From positions 634 through 64,633 of the forward strand of contig DTSX01000111.1 in assembly GCA_012965065.1 (NCBI GenBank): a stretch of DNA of 64,000 bases. Direction: 5' to 3'. Origin of the DNA: Gammaproteobacteria bacterium. Its GTDB lineage: Bacteria; Pseudomonadota; Gammaproteobacteria; Steroidobacterales; UBA11654. Below, piece by piece: positions 54,060 to 60,841 of this stretch. The position numbers and the translations under genes were made by a program. Below the pieces are notes generated by a model. That model saw only the letters and a list, made by a program, of their open reading frames with translations. It was not told the DNA's origin and made no database searches. Every line of letters begins with the position of its first letter. Position 1 is the first letter of the stretch.

Positions 54060-54872
54060 ATGAAAGTAGCCGCTATTCAAATGAATTCATCAGATTCTGT
54101 TTCCGATAATCTGAATCTCCTTGATTCCTTGCTTGCAGTTGCGTGTCAGCAGGATAACAGCCTTGTCCTACTGCCAGAAAATTTTGCATTCATGGGACAC
54201 CCAAAGCAGTTGGTTCAAGAAGTGATGGAAGATTTCAATGACGGACCGATTCAGTCCTTTGTTGCTGACAAAGCCAAAGAATATGGATTGTGGGTGGTCG
54301 CGGGGTCTATTCCGATAAAGAACCATGACCAGAGCAAGAGTCGTGCTCGCTGTATAATTGTTGATGCAAGTGGAGCCTTGGTTAGTTATTACGACAAGAT
54401 TCATTTATTTGATGTTGTGGTCAACGGCAAAACTTACAATGAATCAAGCTACATTGAACCCGGGAGCACACCAAAAAGTGTGCAAACCCCTTGGTTCAAA
54501 CTTGGACTTTCTATCTGTTACGATGTACGTTTTCCTGAGCTCTACCGCTCGAAAACATACCAAGACTCTGATCTGATTGTTGTACCTGCGGCCTTCACTG
54601 TAGAAACAGGCAAGGCACATTGGCAGACTTTATTGTCTTCCAGAGCGATTGAAAATCTTTGCTACGTTATGGCTTCTGCCCAATGGGGTAAACATTATGG
54701 CAAACGAACAACTTACGGTCATTCAATGATTGTCGATCCATGGGGTGAGATTAAGGATGTTTTACCGACAGGAAATGGGGTGGTTTCAACTGAAATTAAT
54801 TTAGAGTTGATTGCTGAAACCCGAGAAACATTTCCTGCTCTCTCGCATCGAAAAATCGAAACAAATGGCTGA
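54060..54872 (+). CDS. Carbon-nitrogen hydrolase family protein (Nit/omega-amidase-like)
   Basis: 270 aa with the catalytic triad context LLPENF (Glu), KIHLFDV (Lys) and ICYDVRFPE (Cys). Confidence 0.85.
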   Translation: MKVAAIQMNSSDSVSDNLNLLDSLLAVACQQDNSLVLLPENFAFMGHPKQLVQEVMEDFNDGPIQSFVADKAKEYGLWVVAGSIPIKNHDQSKSRARCIIVDASGALVSYYDKIHLFDVVVNGKTYNESSYIEPGSTPKSVQTPWFKLGLSICYDVRFPELYRSKTYQDSDLIVVPAAFTVETGKAHWQTLLSSRAIENLCYVMASAQWGKHYGKRTTYGHSMIVDPWGEIKDVLPTGNGVVSTEINLELIAETRETFPALSHRKIETNG

Positions 54873-56331
54873 AGACCGAACAACAATAAATGATCCTGAT
54901 ATTGCACTCAGCAAAGCAAAATCGATTTTGTTGGATCCTTTTAACCTGGATGATCATGACTTAAGTCTAATGCTTTCAACTTTACTCTCCAGTGGCGGTG
55001 AGATGGGTGACATTTATTTTCAAGCCATTTCCCACGAATCATGGACATTGGAAGATCGTGAAGTAAAAAATTCTGTTCATTCGAATAGGCAAGGGGTTGG
55101 GTTTAGATCAATTCTGGGTGAAAAGTCAGGACTTGCTTATAGTGAAGTTTTTGAAAAAGAATCACTTTTACAGGCAGCTAAAGCTGCCGGCACTATTGCA
55201 ACAGACAGAAAACAAATGACCTATAGGGTTAATCCAAAAACGAGTCAGCAGATTTTATACCCGCTGTTAAACCCGATCAATTCATTGGTTGATGAAAACA
55301 AAGTAAAACTATTAAGATCAATTGATGCTTCAGCGAGAGCAAGAGATCATCGTGTCAAAGAAGTGGTGGCTATGCTTTCAGGGAATTACCAAGTCGTTCT
55401 TGTTGTTAGCCATGAAGGGGAGTTGAAAGCAGACATTAGACCGCTCGTCAGGCTCGGTGTAAGTGTTATTGTAGAAGCCAATGGGCGCAGAGAAAGAGGT
55501 TCCAGCGGCGGTGGAGGTCGGCATGGATACGAGTTTTTTGATCAGGATATGCTCAAAAATTATGCAGCAGAGGCTGTTGACCAAGCACTTATTAATTTAG
55601 AGGCAATTGATGCCCCTGCTGGAGAAATGACGGTGGTTTTAGGTTCTGGTTGGCCTGGGGTACTTGTCCATGAAGCAATAGGACATGGGTTGGAGGGTGA
55701 TTTTAATCGTAAGAAAACATCGGCTTTTTCTGGCTTGATGGGAGAGAAAGTGGCTTCATCAATTTGTACAGTAGTTGACGATGGTACTTTAGAGGGACAA
55801 AGAGGTTCATTGAACATCGACGATGAAGGAGAAGAGACACAACGAACAGTACTCATAGAAAACGGCAGGTTATGCAATTACATGCAGGATAAATTGAATG
55901 CAAAATTGATGGGTTCCCATTCTACAGGCAATGGACGCAGAGAATCTTATTCCACACAAACAATACCAAGAATGACCAACACATTTATGATGGCGGGACC
56001 ACATGAGCATGATGAAATTATTCAATCGGTTGATTCTGGCTTGTATGCAAAAAATTTTGGAGGAGGTCAGGTTGATATCACTTCTGGTAAGTTCGTCTTT
56101 TCGGCAAGTGAGGCATATTTAATCAAGCATGGAAAACTGGATGCACCAGTAAAAGGCGCAATGCTTATAGGCGATGGACCATCGGCACTTAAACAAATCT
56201 CCATGGTTGGTAATAATCTTGCTCTTGATCCAGGAGTTGGTAATTGTGGCAAGGAAGGTCAAACCATACCGGTCAATGTCGGGCAACCCACAATGAGAAT
56301 AGAGAATTTGACCGTTGGGGGAACCAATTAA
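54865..56331 (+). CDS. tldD: Metalloprotease TldD
   Basis: The ORF track start at 54811 is inside the hydrolase gene. The ATG at 54865 (ATGGCTGA overlap) gives 488 aa. Contains the HEAIGHGLE motif. Confidence 0.93.
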   Translation: MAEDRTTINDPDIALSKAKSILLDPFNLDDHDLSLMLSTLLSSGGEMGDIYFQAISHESWTLEDREVKNSVHSNRQGVGFRSILGEKSGLAYSEVFEKESLLQAAKAAGTIATDRKQMTYRVNPKTSQQILYPLLNPINSLVDENKVKLLRSIDASARARDHRVKEVVAMLSGNYQVVLVVSHEGELKADIRPLVRLGVSVIVEANGRRERGSSGGGGRHGYEFFDQDMLKNYAAEAVDQALINLEAIDAPAGEMTVVLGSGWPGVLVHEAIGHGLEGDFNRKKTSAFSGLMGEKVASSICTVVDDGTLEGQRGSLNIDDEGEETQRTVLIENGRLCNYMQDKLNAKLMGSHSTGNGRRESYSTQTIPRMTNTFMMAGPHEHDEIIQSVDSGLYAKNFGGGQVDITSGKFVFSASEAYLIKHGKLDAPVKGAMLIGDGPSALKQISMVGNNLALDPGVGNCGKEGQTIPVNVGQPTMRIENLTVGGTN

Positions 56332-56335
56332 AGAA

Positions 56336-56818
56336 TCAATCTAACTCCGATTCAAGAATTTTTTGTGCTTGTTTTTCTCTGTATGCTGAGATTCGGTCTG
56401 CGATGCTGGCATCGGTCAAGGCTAAGATTGCAGCTGCAAACAAGGCTGCGTTGATGGCTCCTGGTTTACCTAAAGCCATTGTTCCAACCGGAATGCCAGG
56501 AGGCATTTGAACGATTGACATCAATGCATCTAAACCATCTAAGGAACCCACTACCAAGGGGACACCAACAACCGGTATGGTGGTTTTTGCTGCTATCACA
56601 CCAGGCAGAGCTGCGGCAAGCCCAGCGCCTGCAATAATTACTTTGATTCCCTTTTCTTGTAACCCGGCACAGTACTCATCCAACAAGTCTGGTGTTCTGT
56701 GTGCCGATATCACTTTTGCTTCATGTTGGATACCGAGATTCGAAAGCATTTCTGCTGAATGAGACATAACGTCCCAGTCAGATTTTGAACCCATAATAAT
56801 GGCTACTTGAATATTCAT
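56336..56818 (-). CDS. purE: N5-carboxyaminoimidazole ribonucleotide mutase PurE
   Basis: 160 aa with VAIIMGSKSDWDVM, SAHRTPD and AGLAAALPGVIAAKTTIPVVGVP. Confidence 0.95.
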   Translation of the reverse strand: MNIQVAIIMGSKSDWDVMSHSAEMLSNLGIQHEAKVISAHRTPDLLDEYCAGLQEKGIKVIIAGAGLAAALPGVIAAKTTIPVVGVPLVVGSLDGLDALMSIVQMPPGIPVGTMALGKPGAINAALFAAAILALTDASIADRISAYREKQAQKILESELD

Positions 56819-56904
56819 TGAACAATTTTACAATGACTTATTTGTTGTGTCTAAGTAAGTTAAAATAAAACCGAGAAATAATTCTTTTAAATCCCTATTA
56901 GATC

Positions 56905-58227
56905 GTGAAAAAACAAACAATAGAATCTGAGGCAGAAGCAGCCCTCGTTCACGCTAAACAGTTAGGTGCTGATCAAGCAGCAGTCACTGTTTCTTCAGGA
57001 AAAGGATTTTCAGTTAAAGCTCAGAATAGGTCAATAGAAACCGTTGAGCATTATGAGGATCAGGCTTTCAGCATCACCGTTTTTGTAAAAAAATCAATGG
57101 GATCTGCAACCACAAACAATTTGTCAAAAGATTCTTTATTGGAAACAACTGAAAAGGCTTTGAGTTTAGCCAGTTTGACTGCAGCCGATGAATGTAATGG
57201 GTTGGCTGACTCAAACTTGATGGCAACAGAGCCCATTGATCTGGATCTTCATCACCCTTGGAAGCTTGATATGGGTAAAGCACAGACGATGGCTCTGGAA
57301 TGTGAACAAGCCGCTCTGGAGTCGGATCCCAAGGTTGATAATTCAGAAGGGGCTACCGTAGGGACATATGAGAGCCATTCTTTGTATGCAAATTCTCATG
57401 GGTTTGTCGGTGCAACAAATACCACAGGGCACACCATTAGCTGTACAGCCGTTGCCAGTGAGAACGGTTCTATGGAAATGGACTATGAATATTCTGCTGC
57501 TAGAAAGGCTGAGGATTTACTTGATCATGAAAAGATTGGTTATAAGGCTGGGATCCAAGCCTGTTCTCATTTGGGCGCGAGAAAAATCAAAACACAAAAA
57601 GCCCAAGTTTTATATTCACCTCGAGCGGCAAAAAGCTTGATCAGCCATATCACTGATGCAATCAGTGGAACCAGCCTGTATAGGAAAGCTTCCTTTTTAC
57701 TTGATAGTATGGATCAACATATTTGCCCTGATTATTTGACCATTACCGAACAGCCGCACCTCAAAAGTTCTTTTGGAAGCACCTATTTTGATGGTGAAGG
57801 GGTCAAAACAAAACCAAGGACTTTGGTCGAGCAAGGCGTCCTAAGAGGTTATCTGCTGTCAAGTTATTCTGCTAGGCGACTGGGTCTTACAACCACTGGG
57901 AATGCGGGAGGACATCACAACCTATTGATTGAGCCTACTTTATCTGGAGGATTGGAAGAGATCATAAGAACAATGACAACCGGTCTGGTTGTCACGGATT
58001 TAATTGGCTATGGTGTTAATATCGTAAACGGAGATTATTCTAGGGGGGCGAATGGTTTCTGGGTGGAGAATGGCGAAATACAATACCCAGTTAGTGAAAT
58101 AACAATTGCTGGAAATCTAAAAAATATATTGCAACAAATCTTAGTTATCGGCAATGATTGTGAAAGAAACAGCGCTATCCATTGTGGCAGCATACTTATT
58201 GATGACATGATGGTAGCGGGCCAGTGA
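56905..58227 (+). CDS. pmbA: Metalloprotease PmbA (TldE)
   Basis: 440 aa with a GTG start. PmbA/TldD-family pattern including the C-terminal GDYSRGANGFWVENGEIQYPV. Confidence 0.9.
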   Translation: MKKQTIESEAEAALVHAKQLGADQAAVTVSSGKGFSVKAQNRSIETVEHYEDQAFSITVFVKKSMGSATTNNLSKDSLLETTEKALSLASLTAADECNGLADSNLMATEPIDLDLHHPWKLDMGKAQTMALECEQAALESDPKVDNSEGATVGTYESHSLYANSHGFVGATNTTGHTISCTAVASENGSMEMDYEYSAARKAEDLLDHEKIGYKAGIQACSHLGARKIKTQKAQVLYSPRAAKSLISHITDAISGTSLYRKASFLLDSMDQHICPDYLTITEQPHLKSSFGSTYFDGEGVKTKPRTLVEQGVLRGYLLSSYSARRLGLTTTGNAGGHHNLLIEPTLSGGLEEIIRTMTTGLVVTDLIGYGVNIVNGDYSRGANGFWVENGEIQYPVSEITIAGNLKNILQQILVIGNDCERNSAIHCGSILIDDMMVAGQ

Positions 58228-58238
58228 GGAACTGATGC

Positions 58239-59459
58239 ATGTACAGAATTTTCTTAATCGCAAGCTTTTTGATCAGTTTTAATTTAGCGTATGGTCACGG
58301 TGCCGTTCAAAGAGCTTCAGAATTAACAGACAGTGATATTCGTCTGTTTGTAGCCGACAATATGGATGGCTCAGTGGTGACCATTGATTTCCCCGATGGA
58401 AAGATTATCAACCGCGTTTCAACGCCTCCATCCATCATGATTCTGGCTTTAAGCAGAAACAAACAATACATTTATGCGATGCGGGGAAGGGATACCGACC
58501 AAGACGTTGTCAGCATTATAACCACCGGATTTGATCCAGAACATAATCAATTCAGGAAGCCTCATGTCCTTAGGACCATTACGGTCGATACCCCAGGAGG
58601 TCCCAGAGACGATAAAATGGCAACGGTGGGCGGTTATGATGCGATTTTGACTGAAGGCAATGCAGAAATTGTAGTTTTACTGTCTGAGGTTATAGATGGC
58701 TTCTCCGAATTAAAAACGAGACGTTATAAGTTAGCAGCACCTGACCATTACCATTATTTAGAAGGTGAAACATATCTTTATATAGGGCATCTTTTTAACG
58801 GGTTTGTACAGGTACTTGATCGATCCTCAGGTGAAGAAGTGACGCGGATTGGAAAATGCCCAATGCTCCATGGAATGACCCGTGATGAGGAATCAGGAAG
58901 ACTGTTTTTTGCATGTGCTACTGAAGTTGTGGTTGTTGGAACACTGGGTGAGGAAAAAGCAAAAGAAATCTCTAGAATTCCTTATCCAGACAACACAGGT
59001 AGGGGGTGTGCGGCTTTCTTTAAAGGCAAAGAACGAGTGCAATGGTGTTACACAGAAGGAATCATACCAAGACTGTATCGACTGGATACATCAAGGGATA
59101 CTTACAAATTTGAAACCTTACCAGTTGAACCGTCGATTAAGCAAAACACTACACACGATGGAAAATATTTGATGGTATTGTCCAAGCAAGGTGTACTCTA
59201 TTTACTCGATGGACTGGATGGAAGCTTCATTAGGGAAATTGAAATATCAGAACCTTTTCTCGGGGATTGGTTTGAGGATGTTGGTAAAGCCATTCTCCCT
59301 GACATTGAATCGCATAATGGCACCGCCTACATTACTCTAACTCATGAGGGAAGAATTGCTGAAGTTGATTTGGAACAAGGAAAAGTTAACAGGTATATTG
59401 ATCTGGGTGGTTTCCCTACAAGAATTGTTCTTCTTTCTAAAGAATCCCTTGTGCAATAA
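58239..59459 (+). CDS. Secreted hypothetical protein, probable beta-propeller (YVTN/lactonase-like repeats)
   Basis: 406 aa with the signal peptide MYRIFLIASFLISFNLAYG. Shows recurring strand-turn patterns typical of propeller blades (LFVADNMDGSVVTIDFPDGKII, LMVLSKQGVLYLLDGLDGSFI, AYITLTHEGRIAEVDLEQGKV). GAGGA lies upstream, and the gene starts 11 nt after the pmbA stop. Confidence 0.55.
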   Translation: MYRIFLIASFLISFNLAYGHGAVQRASELTDSDIRLFVADNMDGSVVTIDFPDGKIINRVSTPPSIMILALSRNKQYIYAMRGRDTDQDVVSIITTGFDPEHNQFRKPHVLRTITVDTPGGPRDDKMATVGGYDAILTEGNAEIVVLLSEVIDGFSELKTRRYKLAAPDHYHYLEGETYLYIGHLFNGFVQVLDRSSGEEVTRIGKCPMLHGMTRDEESGRLFFACATEVVVVGTLGEEKAKEISRIPYPDNTGRGCAAFFKGKERVQWCYTEGIIPRLYRLDTSRDTYKFETLPVEPSIKQNTTHDGKYLMVLSKQGVLYLLDGLDGSFIREIEISEPFLGDWFEDVGKAILPDIESHNGTAYITLTHEGRIAEVDLEQGKVNRYIDLGGFPTRIVLLSKESLVQ

Positions 59460-59502
59460 TGGTATTCAATCAGGTCCTAGTTAACATAACAGAGGAAGCG
59501 CC

Positions 59503-59913
59503 ATGAAAATTAAGATCAAAAGTTTATTTTTAACCATGATCATGCTGCTAATGGGTATTCATTTCCAGTCGGATGTTTACGCTCACGCTGATCATGATAA
59601 AGATGCCAATGTTATAACAATGGCAGATATAGTCATCGGAATTCAGCACTATGCCACCGCAGAGGATCAAAAACATCTGCAGGCTATAGTGGACTCTGAT
59701 TCATCAACGGCAGACGAGAAAATAATAGCAACTGCCATTATAAATATTCAGCATCAAGCTACAGCGGGAGATAAACAGAAGTTGCAAGAGATTATTGTCA
59801 ATACGGCTCCAACTTCTACAGTAAGCGCTCTAGCTACTATTGTTCATGGGTTTTCTCACGGAATCTCTGTGGCGGATAAAAGAAAACTGCAAACAATAAA
59901 ATTCAAAGGTTAA
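59503..59913 (+). CDS. Secreted small protein with three 35-aa His-containing repeats
   Basis: 136 aa with a signal peptide ending VYA/HADHD. The repeats IQHYATAEDQKHLQAIV, IQHQATAGDKQKLQEII and FSHGISVADKRKLQTIK place a His at aa 49, 84 and 119. GAGGAAG lies upstream of the start. Confidence 0.6.
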   Translation: MKIKIKSLFLTMIMLLMGIHFQSDVYAHADHDKDANVITMADIVIGIQHYATAEDQKHLQAIVDSDSSTADEKIIATAIINIQHQATAGDKQKLQEIIVNTAPTSTVSALATIVHGFSHGISVADKRKLQTIKFKG

Positions 59914-59938: not shown

Positions 59939-59967
59939 AGAACAACTGATTCGTAATCAGTTGTTCT
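59939..59967. terminator. Perfect 13-bp stem / 3-nt loop hairpin between convergent genes
   Basis: AGAACAACTGATT-CGT-AATCAGTTGTTCT. It lies 26 nt after the + strand stop at 59913 and overlaps the last four codons and stop of purC. Neither side has a clear U-tract. Confidence 0.45.
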
Positions 59968-60841
59968 TGCCTGTGATGATCTTGTAGGCGCTTTTATATT
60001 TTGCAGCGGTATTTTCAATGATGTCTTGAGGCAATTTAGGACCAGGTGCTGTCTTATCCCAATCCAGTGTTTCCAAATAGTCTCTGAGGTACTGCTTGTC
60101 AAAACTGGGCGGGCTGATGCCGAGTTGATAATCCTCAATGGCCCAGAATCTTGAAGAGTCTGGGGTTAGCACTTCATCAATAAGATACAATTTACCATTC
60201 TCGTCTAAACCGAATTCAAATTTAGTGTCGGCAATGATAATTCCACGTTTTTTGGCATGCTGGACTCCGTGGCTGTATAGAGCAAGGGCTAAATTTCTTA
60301 CCCGATTAGCAAGATCCTCGCCGAGAATATCCACGGTTGTTTCATACGTAATATTTTCATCGTGCTCACCAAATTCAGCTTTTGTCGCTGGGGTGTAAAT
60401 GGGTTCCGGGAGCTGAGCAGCCATTTGAAGATTGTCCTCCAATTCAATTCCACAGACTGAACCATTTGCTTGATAATCTTTCCATCCTGACCCAATTAAA
60501 TAACCCCTGACAACCGCTTCTATTGGCAGTGGGTGCAAGCGTTTGACCACCATGCTCCTTTTCTTGAAGTAATCAATTTCTGACTGATTTTGTATTAGAT
60601 CCTCCAGCATGAACTTATTACTGAGGTGGTTGGCTACAATGTTTTCTGTCTGCTCAAACCAAAAAAGAGACAATTGGGTTAGAACTTCTCCTTTATTTGG
60701 TATTGGATCGGGTAATACCACATCAAAGGCAGACATGCGATCACTTGTTACAAGCAAAATGTGATCCTGATCAATGGCATAAATATCCCTGACTTTTCCT
60801 TGAGCAACCAGATCTAGATTTTGAATTATTGGGGTATTCAT
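59957..60841 (-). CDS. purC: Phosphoribosylaminoimidazole-succinocarboxamide synthase
   Basis: 294 aa (long form) with GKVRDIY, TSDRMSAFD and ADTKFEFG motifs. Confidence 0.95.
   Translation of the reverse strand: MNTPIIQNLDLVAQGKVRDIYAIDQDHILLVTSDRMSAFDVVLPDPIPNKGEVLTQLSLFWFEQTENIVANHLSNKFMLEDLIQNQSEIDYFKKRSMVVKRLHPLPIEAVVRGYLIGSGWKDYQANGSVCGIELEDNLQMAAQLPEPIYTPATKAEFGEHDENITYETTVDILGEDLANRVRNLALALYSHGVQHAKKRGIIIADTKFEFGLDENGKLYLIDEVLTPDSSRFWAIEDYQLGISPPSFDKQYLRDYLETLDWDKTAPGPKLPQDIIENTAAKYKSAYKIITGKNN

Follow-up and report, generated by a model that had tools for sequence, protein, structure and literature searches.

Do the two genes that follow pmbA in this gammaproteobacterial genome encode a periplasmic metal-handling pair, or are they neighbors by position only? 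The locus lies on contig DTSX01000111.1 of a Gammaproteobacteria bacterium, in a stretch of 64,000 nucleotides that was analyzed as a whole and is called the window below. The original prediction, made from the sequence alone, had described two consecutive plus-strand genes for secreted proteins, here called P1 and P2, separated from pmbA and from each other by 11 and 43 nucleotides, and had proposed that the products handle metals or envelope stress in the periplasm. The two open reading frames (ORFs) and their spacing were confirmed:

58239-59459, + strand: the P1 gene, a 406-amino-acid ORF for a secreted eight-bladed beta-propeller of an AztD-like sister family.
59503-59913, + strand: the P2 gene, a 136-amino-acid ORF for a secreted protein of three helical-hairpin repeats, from an uncurated triple-histidine family.

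It was shown that P1 is an eight-bladed propeller homologous to the zinc metallochaperone AztD and that it belongs to a separate sister family. P1 is thus a distant, undescribed relative of AztD, while P2 belongs to a large, unnamed family. Beyond AztD itself, no description of the P1 sister family or of the P2 family was found in the literature. As read from the sequences, P1 and P2 may form a periplasmic, probably zinc-handling system, in which the AztD-like propeller is served by a lineage-specific small tri-histidine accessory. I regard this as the best explanation of the locus, but a tentative one, with a chance a little short of even.

The homology of P1 to AztD was found by three routes. 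The AlphaFold2 model of P1 (predicted local distance difference test score, pLDDT, 90.4; predicted template modeling score, pTM, 0.87) has eight blades of three to four strands. In a Foldseek search, the top nine matches were all AztD chains (6n01, 6cmk, and 6ck1; E 1e-19 to 8e-16; template modeling scores 0.70-0.77), and the next best fold followed at E 2.5e-11. A Pfam search with P1 gave nothing significant, and its best NCBIfam match was AztD (NF038015; 43.3 bits, E 1.9e-11). AztD was also the first NCBIfam match for all 34 sister-family members, each time weakly (best E 2.3e-19). A profile of the 34 homologs aligned over its full length with Citrobacter koseri AztD (CkAztD) at E 1.2e-9. 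Thus the hidden Markov model (HMM) search, the profile search of PDB sequences, and the fold comparison all rank AztD first for P1, and what had been offered as an analogy to AztD turned out to be homology. P1 as a true AztD ortholog was rejected, since 43 bits lie far below the curated cut-off of 400 bits and the family members match AztD only weakly.

The original prediction had placed P1 among propellers of the YVTN/lactonase type. The propeller fold was borne out, but no YVTN protein comes nearly as close as AztD: a single blade (residues 33-79) matches YncE with 24 bits against a cut-off of 400, TIGR02276 (YVTN) matches three of the 34 relatives, and the YVTN structure 1l0q ranks tenth in Foldseek. 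A second Foldseek tier, at E about 1e-10, consists of the d1 domain of cd1 nitrite reductase and other eight-bladed periplasmic propellers; P1 is about 13% identical to the d1 domain and gives no evidence of heme d1 ligands. Like the AztD proteins of the AztABCD systems of Paracoccus denitrificans and C. koseri, P1 is a secreted eight-bladed propeller of similar length, and it shares with them the conserved disulfide, the CPxLHG motif, and two of the three pore-site histidines, at about 20% identity.

Which of the AztD sites are kept in P1? The residues were mapped by alignment to CkAztD, and residue roles were taken from PMC6689063. In P. denitrificans AztD (PdAztD), a disulfide links Cys214 and Cys231; His124, His167, and His218 form site 1 in the pore; and the zinc-transfer site 2 consists of His99, His102, and Asp104 on a hairpin together with the C-terminal His408 (PMC6689063). 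The N-terminal motif DHDHDHE of PdAztD binds zinc weakly and influences or assists the transfer (PMC7463823). The corresponding features of P1 are as follows:

58239-58295, + strand: predicted signal peptide of P1 (residues 1-19), read from the family alignment.
58746-58916, + strand: the core motifs PDH170YH, GH184, C207-P-x-L-H211-G, and C226, aligned with CkAztD and invariant in 35 sequences.
59268-59279, + strand: residues 344-347, W-F-E-D, replacing the [FY]-H-E-H of nearly all other family members.

P1 has four cysteines (207, 226, 257, and 270), as had been noted before. Cys207, which aligns inside the CP-x-LHG motif common to AztD, and Cys226 are the equivalents of the AztD disulfide cysteines, are invariant in the 35 sequences, and probably form the same bond. 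His170 and His211 are the equivalents of the pore ligands His167 and His218, and both are conserved. The position of the first pore ligand is occupied by Lys126 in the window clade (the P1 of the window and its counterparts that lie beside a P2 gene) and by histidine in only some relatives. His184 or the N-terminal His20, to judge from the alignment, might substitute for the missing ligand. The aligned segment for site 2 (TGFDPEHNQFRKP) has no family-conserved histidine and the C-terminus of P1 ends in ESLVQ; at the level of sequence, both the hairpin and the C-terminal part of the AztD zinc-transfer site are missing from P1.

The family has invariant residues of its own, namely the mature His20-Gly21, His184, Glu273, and Glu346, of which His184, Glu273, and Glu346 are invariant in the P1 family only and not in AztD. 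The DHDHDHE motif of AztD is reduced to the invariant His-Gly, present in 34 of 34 full-length homologs and always preceded by A-x-A/G. The cleavage consensus of the family is thus A-x-A|H-G, and the predicted mature P1 starts with H20-G-A-V, in line with the HG start claimed earlier. The W-F-E-D motif, which contains Glu346, lies in a loop of lower model confidence (pLDDT 75 for residues 341-350). The HEH motif is missing in all 17 P2-adjacent P1 loci, which have F/N-E-D instead, and is present in every relative with a zinc context. The second cysteine pair, Cys257 and Cys270 (window positions 59007-59048), flanks the invariant Trp269 and is found only in the P2-adjacent clade, which suggests an additional clade-specific disulfide near the conserved Glu273.

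Is the AztD relationship reflected in the genes around P1 homologs? The family sample comprised 129 protein clusters and 35 genome loci. The hosts are mostly Gammaproteobacteria; some alphaproteobacterial metagenome-assembled genomes (MAGs) and cultured strains of Paenibacillus and Cohnella are also represented. In loci beyond the window clade, P1 homologs repeatedly have zinc-acquisition genes as neighbors:

L025 and L027: a gene for a ZnuA-type substrate-binding protein (SBP) overlaps the 3′ end of the P1 homolog.
P0177: a fusion of a P1-type propeller with ZnuA.
L032 (Paenibacillus): ZnuA and two COG0523 genes near the P1 homolog.
L004: Fur, a TonB receptor, DUF1826, and CobW near the P1 homolog.
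L039: Fur, ZIP, a TonB receptor, DUF1826, and MerC near the P1 homolog.
L024: ZIP, Rrf2, and ZrgA near the P1 homolog.

The best NCBIfam match of the ZnuA-like SBP in L025 is AztC. These loci match the themes of AztD neighborhoods, that is, ZnuA-type SBPs, Fur, and CobW/COG0523 (PMC6689063), and a coupling to ZnuA-type genes as in AztD is seen in L025, L027, and L032 and in the fusion P0177. The homologs in Paenibacillus and Cohnella (L032, 6001-7650; L035, 5941-7560) have a Cu_amine_oxidN1 domain at the C-terminus, which presumably serves to keep the protein on the cell surface of these Gram-positive bacteria. The nearest outgroup homologs, P0089 and P0096 (L073, 3-836; L074, 2-682), are about 50% identical, and in them, too, the HEH motif is incomplete. 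In place of pmbA they are preceded by a methyltransferase-like gene, which by eye resembles spermidine synthase, and both contigs stop right after the P1 homolog, before the position where a P2 gene would lie.

What kind of protein is P2? The following features were read from its sequence, repeat register, and conservation:

59503-59583, + strand: predicted signal peptide of P2 (residues 1-27, ending SDVYA).
59584-59604, + strand: predicted mature N-terminal tail HADHDKD, with His28 and His31.
59608-59712, + strand: repeat 1 (residues 36-70), with His49 at 59647-59649.
59713-59817, + strand: repeat 2 (residues 71-105), with His84 at 59752-59754.
59818-59910, + strand: repeat 3 (residues 106-136), with His119 at 59857-59859.

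The signal peptide has a lysine-rich n-region, a hydrophobic core, and V-x-A, and its cleavage was read as VYA|HADHDKD, which agrees with the His/Asp-rich mature start proposed before; the signal peptides of both proteins were read by eye from the sequences and family alignments. The 35-residue periodicity claimed for P2 was clear. At offset 35 the ungapped self-score reaches 89; for the best offset of shuffled sequences (n=5000) it is -1.9 +/- 7.8, with a maximum of 35. Offset 70 comes second, and His49, His84, and His119 are in register. In the AlphaFold2 model (overall pLDDT 82; most of residues 41-130 exceed 90), six helices form three hairpins with one histidine in each hairpin loop, and a predicted beta-bridge between residues 85 and 118 would set His84 beside His119.

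Searches with P2 alone gave no match in Pfam, NCBIfam, or PDB sequences, two profiles of its family gave no match in PDB sequences, and the model found no significant PDB fold by Foldseek (best E about 1). A word-based search retrieved clade members only. By an HMM search of 1.84 billion representatives, a family of 474 clusters at E <= 1e-3 (353 at E <= 1e-10) was revealed, mostly secreted proteins of 120-140 residues that are named hypothetical in all sources and are covered by no Pfam or NCBIfam model. Among 134 representatives, 24-40% identical to P2, only five columns are invariant: His49, Leu59, His84, His119, and Leu129. All 134 of these diverse members thus keep the three histidines, and the consensus of the repeat reads M-A-x-I-h-x-x-L-N-H-[YF]-P-S-x-x-E-K-x-x-L. 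The triple-histidine family defined here comprises secreted proteins or domains of some 100 residues, built of three helix-loop-helix repeats of about 35 residues, each with an invariant histidine in the loop, and P2 fits this definition.

Recurrent His-rich N-terminal tails are typical of periplasmic metal binders. At least two histidines just before repeat 1 (e.g., HEDHHH or SDHHHGNSH) were found, independently, in 17 of the 134 members. The P2-type domain also occurs inside giant RTX, FG-GAP, and dockerin-type surface proteins. For instance, P0193, P0210, P0234, and L065-L070 have the triple-histidine domain in proteins of 250-1200 residues with RTX, FG-GAP, dockerin-like, or cadherin-like repeats; the domain is therefore an extracellular module as well.

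How might the two proteins work? The pmbA promoter would probably drive both genes, and their products would reach the periplasm by export. At the entrance of its pore, P1 would most likely bind a divalent metal ion, probably zinc, which it would then pass on; metal binding is proposed because sister-family members adjoin or are fused with ZnuA/AztC-like proteins and adjoin zinc-acquisition genes. The histidines of P2, one on each modeled hairpin and all conserved, would most likely form a shared metal site. The H-x-D-H tail of the clade P2, which resembles the zinc motif DHDHDHE of PdAztD (PMC7463823), could act as a low-affinity capture arm by analogy with that motif. P2 may then serve P1 as a distinct partner that captures the metal or hands it over. 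This step, the last and the weakest of the proposal, is put forward because P1 has lost the exposed HEH and P2 is encoded directly downstream.

ZinT and other His-tailed periplasmic zinc-binding accessories assist ZnuA. Like ZinT (YodA), P2 is small and periplasmic with a His/Asp-rich mature N-terminus, and an auxiliary role in metal capture may be proposed for it by analogy. The analogy to ZinT draws on general background and on the introduction of PMC6689063. However, ZinT is a lipocalin-like beta protein and P2 is all-helical, with no relationship in sequence or fold.

A bolder version of the proposal is that of a split metallochaperone. P1, without an exposed transfer motif of its own (HEH, the counterpart of AztD site 2), would rely on P2, whose three pseudo-symmetric hairpins would build a tri-histidine site in a fold not yet in the PDB, with an AztD-like capture tail. 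The 474 clusters of the P2 family would then be new and widespread periplasmic or extracellular metal-binding modules, including those in giant surface proteins. I consider this version quite unlikely as a whole.

Several points weigh against a zinc-handling pair. Since the window clade has Lys126 at the pore ligand and has lost HEH, its P1 metal site may be degraded or altered, as judged from the alignment. The role of the invariant P2 histidines could be structural, namely to cap helices. The P1 and P2 families never co-occur within 5-6 kb outside the clade, and their adjacency may be a single inherited accident that proves little alone. Neither the window nor the clade loci have a Zur box, ZnuA, COG0523, or another metal gene. 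With up to three mismatches allowed, the Zur-box pattern TGTTATAWTATAACA matched the window at two distant sites only, a chance-level result, no SBP or ABC (ATP-binding cassette) transporter gene was found near P1 and P2 in the window or the clade loci, and, unlike AztD, the P1 of the window has no aztABC gene beside it. Finally, some P1-family members are linked to cytochromes c, to a cupredoxin, or to a copper-binding bufferin, which makes zinc the leading but not the sole candidate metal.

The local layout bears on whether the genes are expressed together. The surrounding features are as follows:

56905-58227, + strand: pmbA (TldE-type); the syntenic gene of L001 has PmbA_TldD domains.
58226-58231, + strand: Shine-Dalgarno sequence GAGGAA of P1, 7 nucleotides before the ATG and overlapping the pmbA stop codon.
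59492-59497, + strand: Shine-Dalgarno sequence GAGGAA of P2, 5 nucleotides before the ATG.
59939-59967, no strand assigned: a hairpin with a perfect 13-bp stem and a 3-nucleotide loop, between the convergent P2 and purC.
59968-59990, + strand: a terminator-like stem with a T-run, directly after the 13-bp hairpin, inside the 3′ end of purC (opposite strand).
59957-60841, - strand: purC (SAICAR synthetase), convergent and ending the unit; Pfam assignment via the syntenic gene in L001.

All three genes from pmbA to P2 are on the plus strand, and no promoter-like site was seen in the 11-nucleotide gap between pmbA and P1. pmbA, P1, and P2 are probably co-transcribed. The Shine-Dalgarno sites and signal peptides described before were found again for both genes. 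As for the strong hairpin said to close the unit, its 13-bp stem is perfect, and the 72-nucleotide stretch holding it folds at -21.6 kcal/mol (z = -3.6), but the hairpin itself lacks a T-run, and it extends over the stop codon of purC (59957-59959, minus strand). The hairpin and the following stem could together terminate the P1-P2 transcript. The base composition is uniform across the region (guanine-plus-cytosine fraction 0.39-0.44), with no sign of a recent horizontal acquisition of P1 and P2. Elsewhere the window holds only housekeeping genes (rpoBC, those for ribosomal proteins, uvrA, miaB, leuS, cysS, holA, tldD, and purE), and no metal-uptake genes were seen in a survey of it.

Is the pairing of P1 and P2 conserved? 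In all 14 other genomes with a P1 at least 64% identical, the P2 gene lies directly downstream of P1 on the same strand, at gaps of 12-80 nucleotides. These clade genomes are marine MAGs labelled Woeseia, Woeseiaceae, or Gammaproteobacteria, and the pair is always inside the block tldD-purE-pmbA-P1-P2-purC-rpe-rplM-rpsI. The clade P2 has diverged to 35% identity, yet it keeps the three histidines and an H-[AS]-[DN]-H mature N-terminus, a tail found in every clade genome and not in most of the wider P2 family. In the window, the genes for the TldD/TldE protease subunits, tldD and pmbA (54811-58227), are split by purE on the opposite strand (56336-56818), and this tldD-purE-pmbA arrangement is kept throughout the clade. 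One contig with the tldD-purE-pmbA-P1-P2 synteny, L018 (PBPE01000118.1), is labelled as a Dehalococcoidia MAG; since its synteny and near-identical proteins match the Woeseiaceae-like clade, it is probably mis-binned. A functional link to pmbA was rejected; the synteny is kept within the clade only. The association looks positional, as the original prediction had allowed, and pmbA is context for P1 and P2 rather than a demonstrated functional partner.

The same doubt applies to the pair itself. The adjacency may be positional only, with P1 an AztD-like metal-binding propeller that acts alone or with a partner elsewhere, and P2 an independent protein, for instance a module that binds a non-metal ligand or a protein, or a structural module, with histidines that stabilize the hairpin loops. 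This alternative is unlikely in my estimate, though it is the likeliest of the rivals. P2 is missing at 21 independent loci with more distant P1 homologs, and in the wider P2 family, where the genes stand alone in unrelated surroundings, 30 loci have neither P1 nor a recurrent neighbor; the embedding of P2-type domains in large surface proteins also fits an independent role. Because the whole block is syntenic in the clade and the families are apart elsewhere, the adjacency counts as one evolutionary event. Moreover, the H-[YF]-P-S-x-x-[ED] context of the histidines resembles a helix C-cap/N-cap connection. On the other hand, P1 and P2 are tightly spaced on one strand with a common 3′ end, the arrangement is kept in 14 genomes although P2 diverges fast, and the His-rich N-terminal tails that recur in the P2 family point to metal binding. 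The clade-specific changes, namely the loss of HEH and the second cysteine pair in P1 and the HxDH tail in P2, favor a coupling of the two proteins, which is plausible as far as the sequences go. Thus, of the earlier idea of a co-occurring pair, the adjacency stood, within one syntenic clade, and a general module was not found.

A second alternative is that the P1 family is linked to copper or redox chemistry, as an enzyme or an electron-transfer partner, with the N-terminal histidine as a histidine-brace-type ligand alongside the pore histidines, and P2 as a small copper-buffering or accessory protein. The following P1-family clusters and loci speak for it:

P0114, P0124, P0125, P0132, P0133, and P0135: six P1-family clusters with a C-terminal cytochrome c fusion.
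L005, 7505-7972, and L028, 5504-5959: cytochrome c genes immediately upstream of P1 homologs.
L022, 4223-4789: a cytochrome c' gene overlapping the start of the P1 homolog.
L006, 7492-7920: a cupredoxin-like gene upstream of the P1 homolog.
L026, 1307-1687, and L027, 5463-5747, - strand: precursors of BufA2 bufferin-type copper metallophores beside P1 homologs.

The BufA2 neighbors (75.7 bits in L026 and 70.8 in L027, against an NCBIfam cut-off of 60) are small, Cys-rich, and secreted, with a His-rich mature N-terminus (HSDxDEGHAH). The cytochrome c linkage, which is not a feature of AztD, is unexplained for a presumed zinc chaperone family. The fusions are reminiscent of the cd1 nitrite reductase architecture, but their cytochrome domain is C-terminal rather than N-terminal and is absent from the P1 of the window. 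It may be added to this side that the first mature residue of P1 is an invariant histidine, that the window clade lacks HEH as the cytochrome c fusions do, and that the AztD pore site, three histidines plus a water, resembles that of an enzyme and is without a known function (PMC6689063). Three of the fusions (P0114, P0133, and the L006 copy of P0133) were examined for HEH, and none has it. Nevertheless, a copper or redox role for the window pair seems distinctly improbable. No cytochrome, cupredoxin, or copper gene lies near the pair in the window or in the clade loci, zinc-type neighbors outnumber the others and include the direct ZnuA fusion and overlap, the context of L027 is mixed (BufA2 together with a ZnuA-like SBP), and the sole characterized homolog is a zinc chaperone.

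The weakest alternative, that P2 is a periplasmic stress chaperone or metal-stress sensor accessory of the CpxP/Spy/ZraP type, is hardly credible and already largely refuted: proteins of this LTXXQ/Metal_resist clan, CnrX included, are likewise small, helical, and periplasmic, some bind metals, and one of the 134 family members has a marginal Metal_resist match (E 3.8e-4), but P2 has no LTXXQ (PF07813) or Metal_resist (PF13801) match at E <= 1, the other 133 members have no such Pfam match, P2 and the two family profiles found no Spy, CpxP, ZraP, or CnrX among PDB sequences at E <= 10, no significant fold was found by Foldseek, the repeat architecture differs, and the conserved motif is L-N-H-[YF]-P-S-x-x-E-K and not LTxxQ. 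P2 as a protein of this type was rejected, and with it the resemblance to LTxxQ helices on which the original prediction had drawn. Its metal-handling idea is left with the AztD homology of P1 and the conserved histidines of P2, in a pair restricted to one lineage; sensitive family and structure searches placed P1 among AztD relatives and placed P2 nowhere in Pfam, NCBIfam, or the PDB.

What, then, does the locus mean? Among beta-propellers, AztD is to my knowledge the sole one known to deliver zinc straight to a protein partner, by a transfer mechanism that depends on a single defined site. The P1 sister family retains the propeller fold together with the disulfide and some of the pore-site residues, has no such transfer site, and yet adjoins or is fused with ZnuA/AztC-like proteins. 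The family therefore points to a second, so far unknown way in which propellers handle metals, and it offers a way to approach the role of the pore site in AztD, which has lacked an explanation. P2, for its part, represents a large family with no counterpart in Pfam, NCBIfam, or the PDB, whose three invariant histidines predict a tri-histidine metal site. The host organisms are abundant marine gammaproteobacteria, and their habitat is scarce in zinc and other trace metals. If real, a constitutive periplasmic capture system in these bacteria would bear on the acquisition of trace metals in the ocean.

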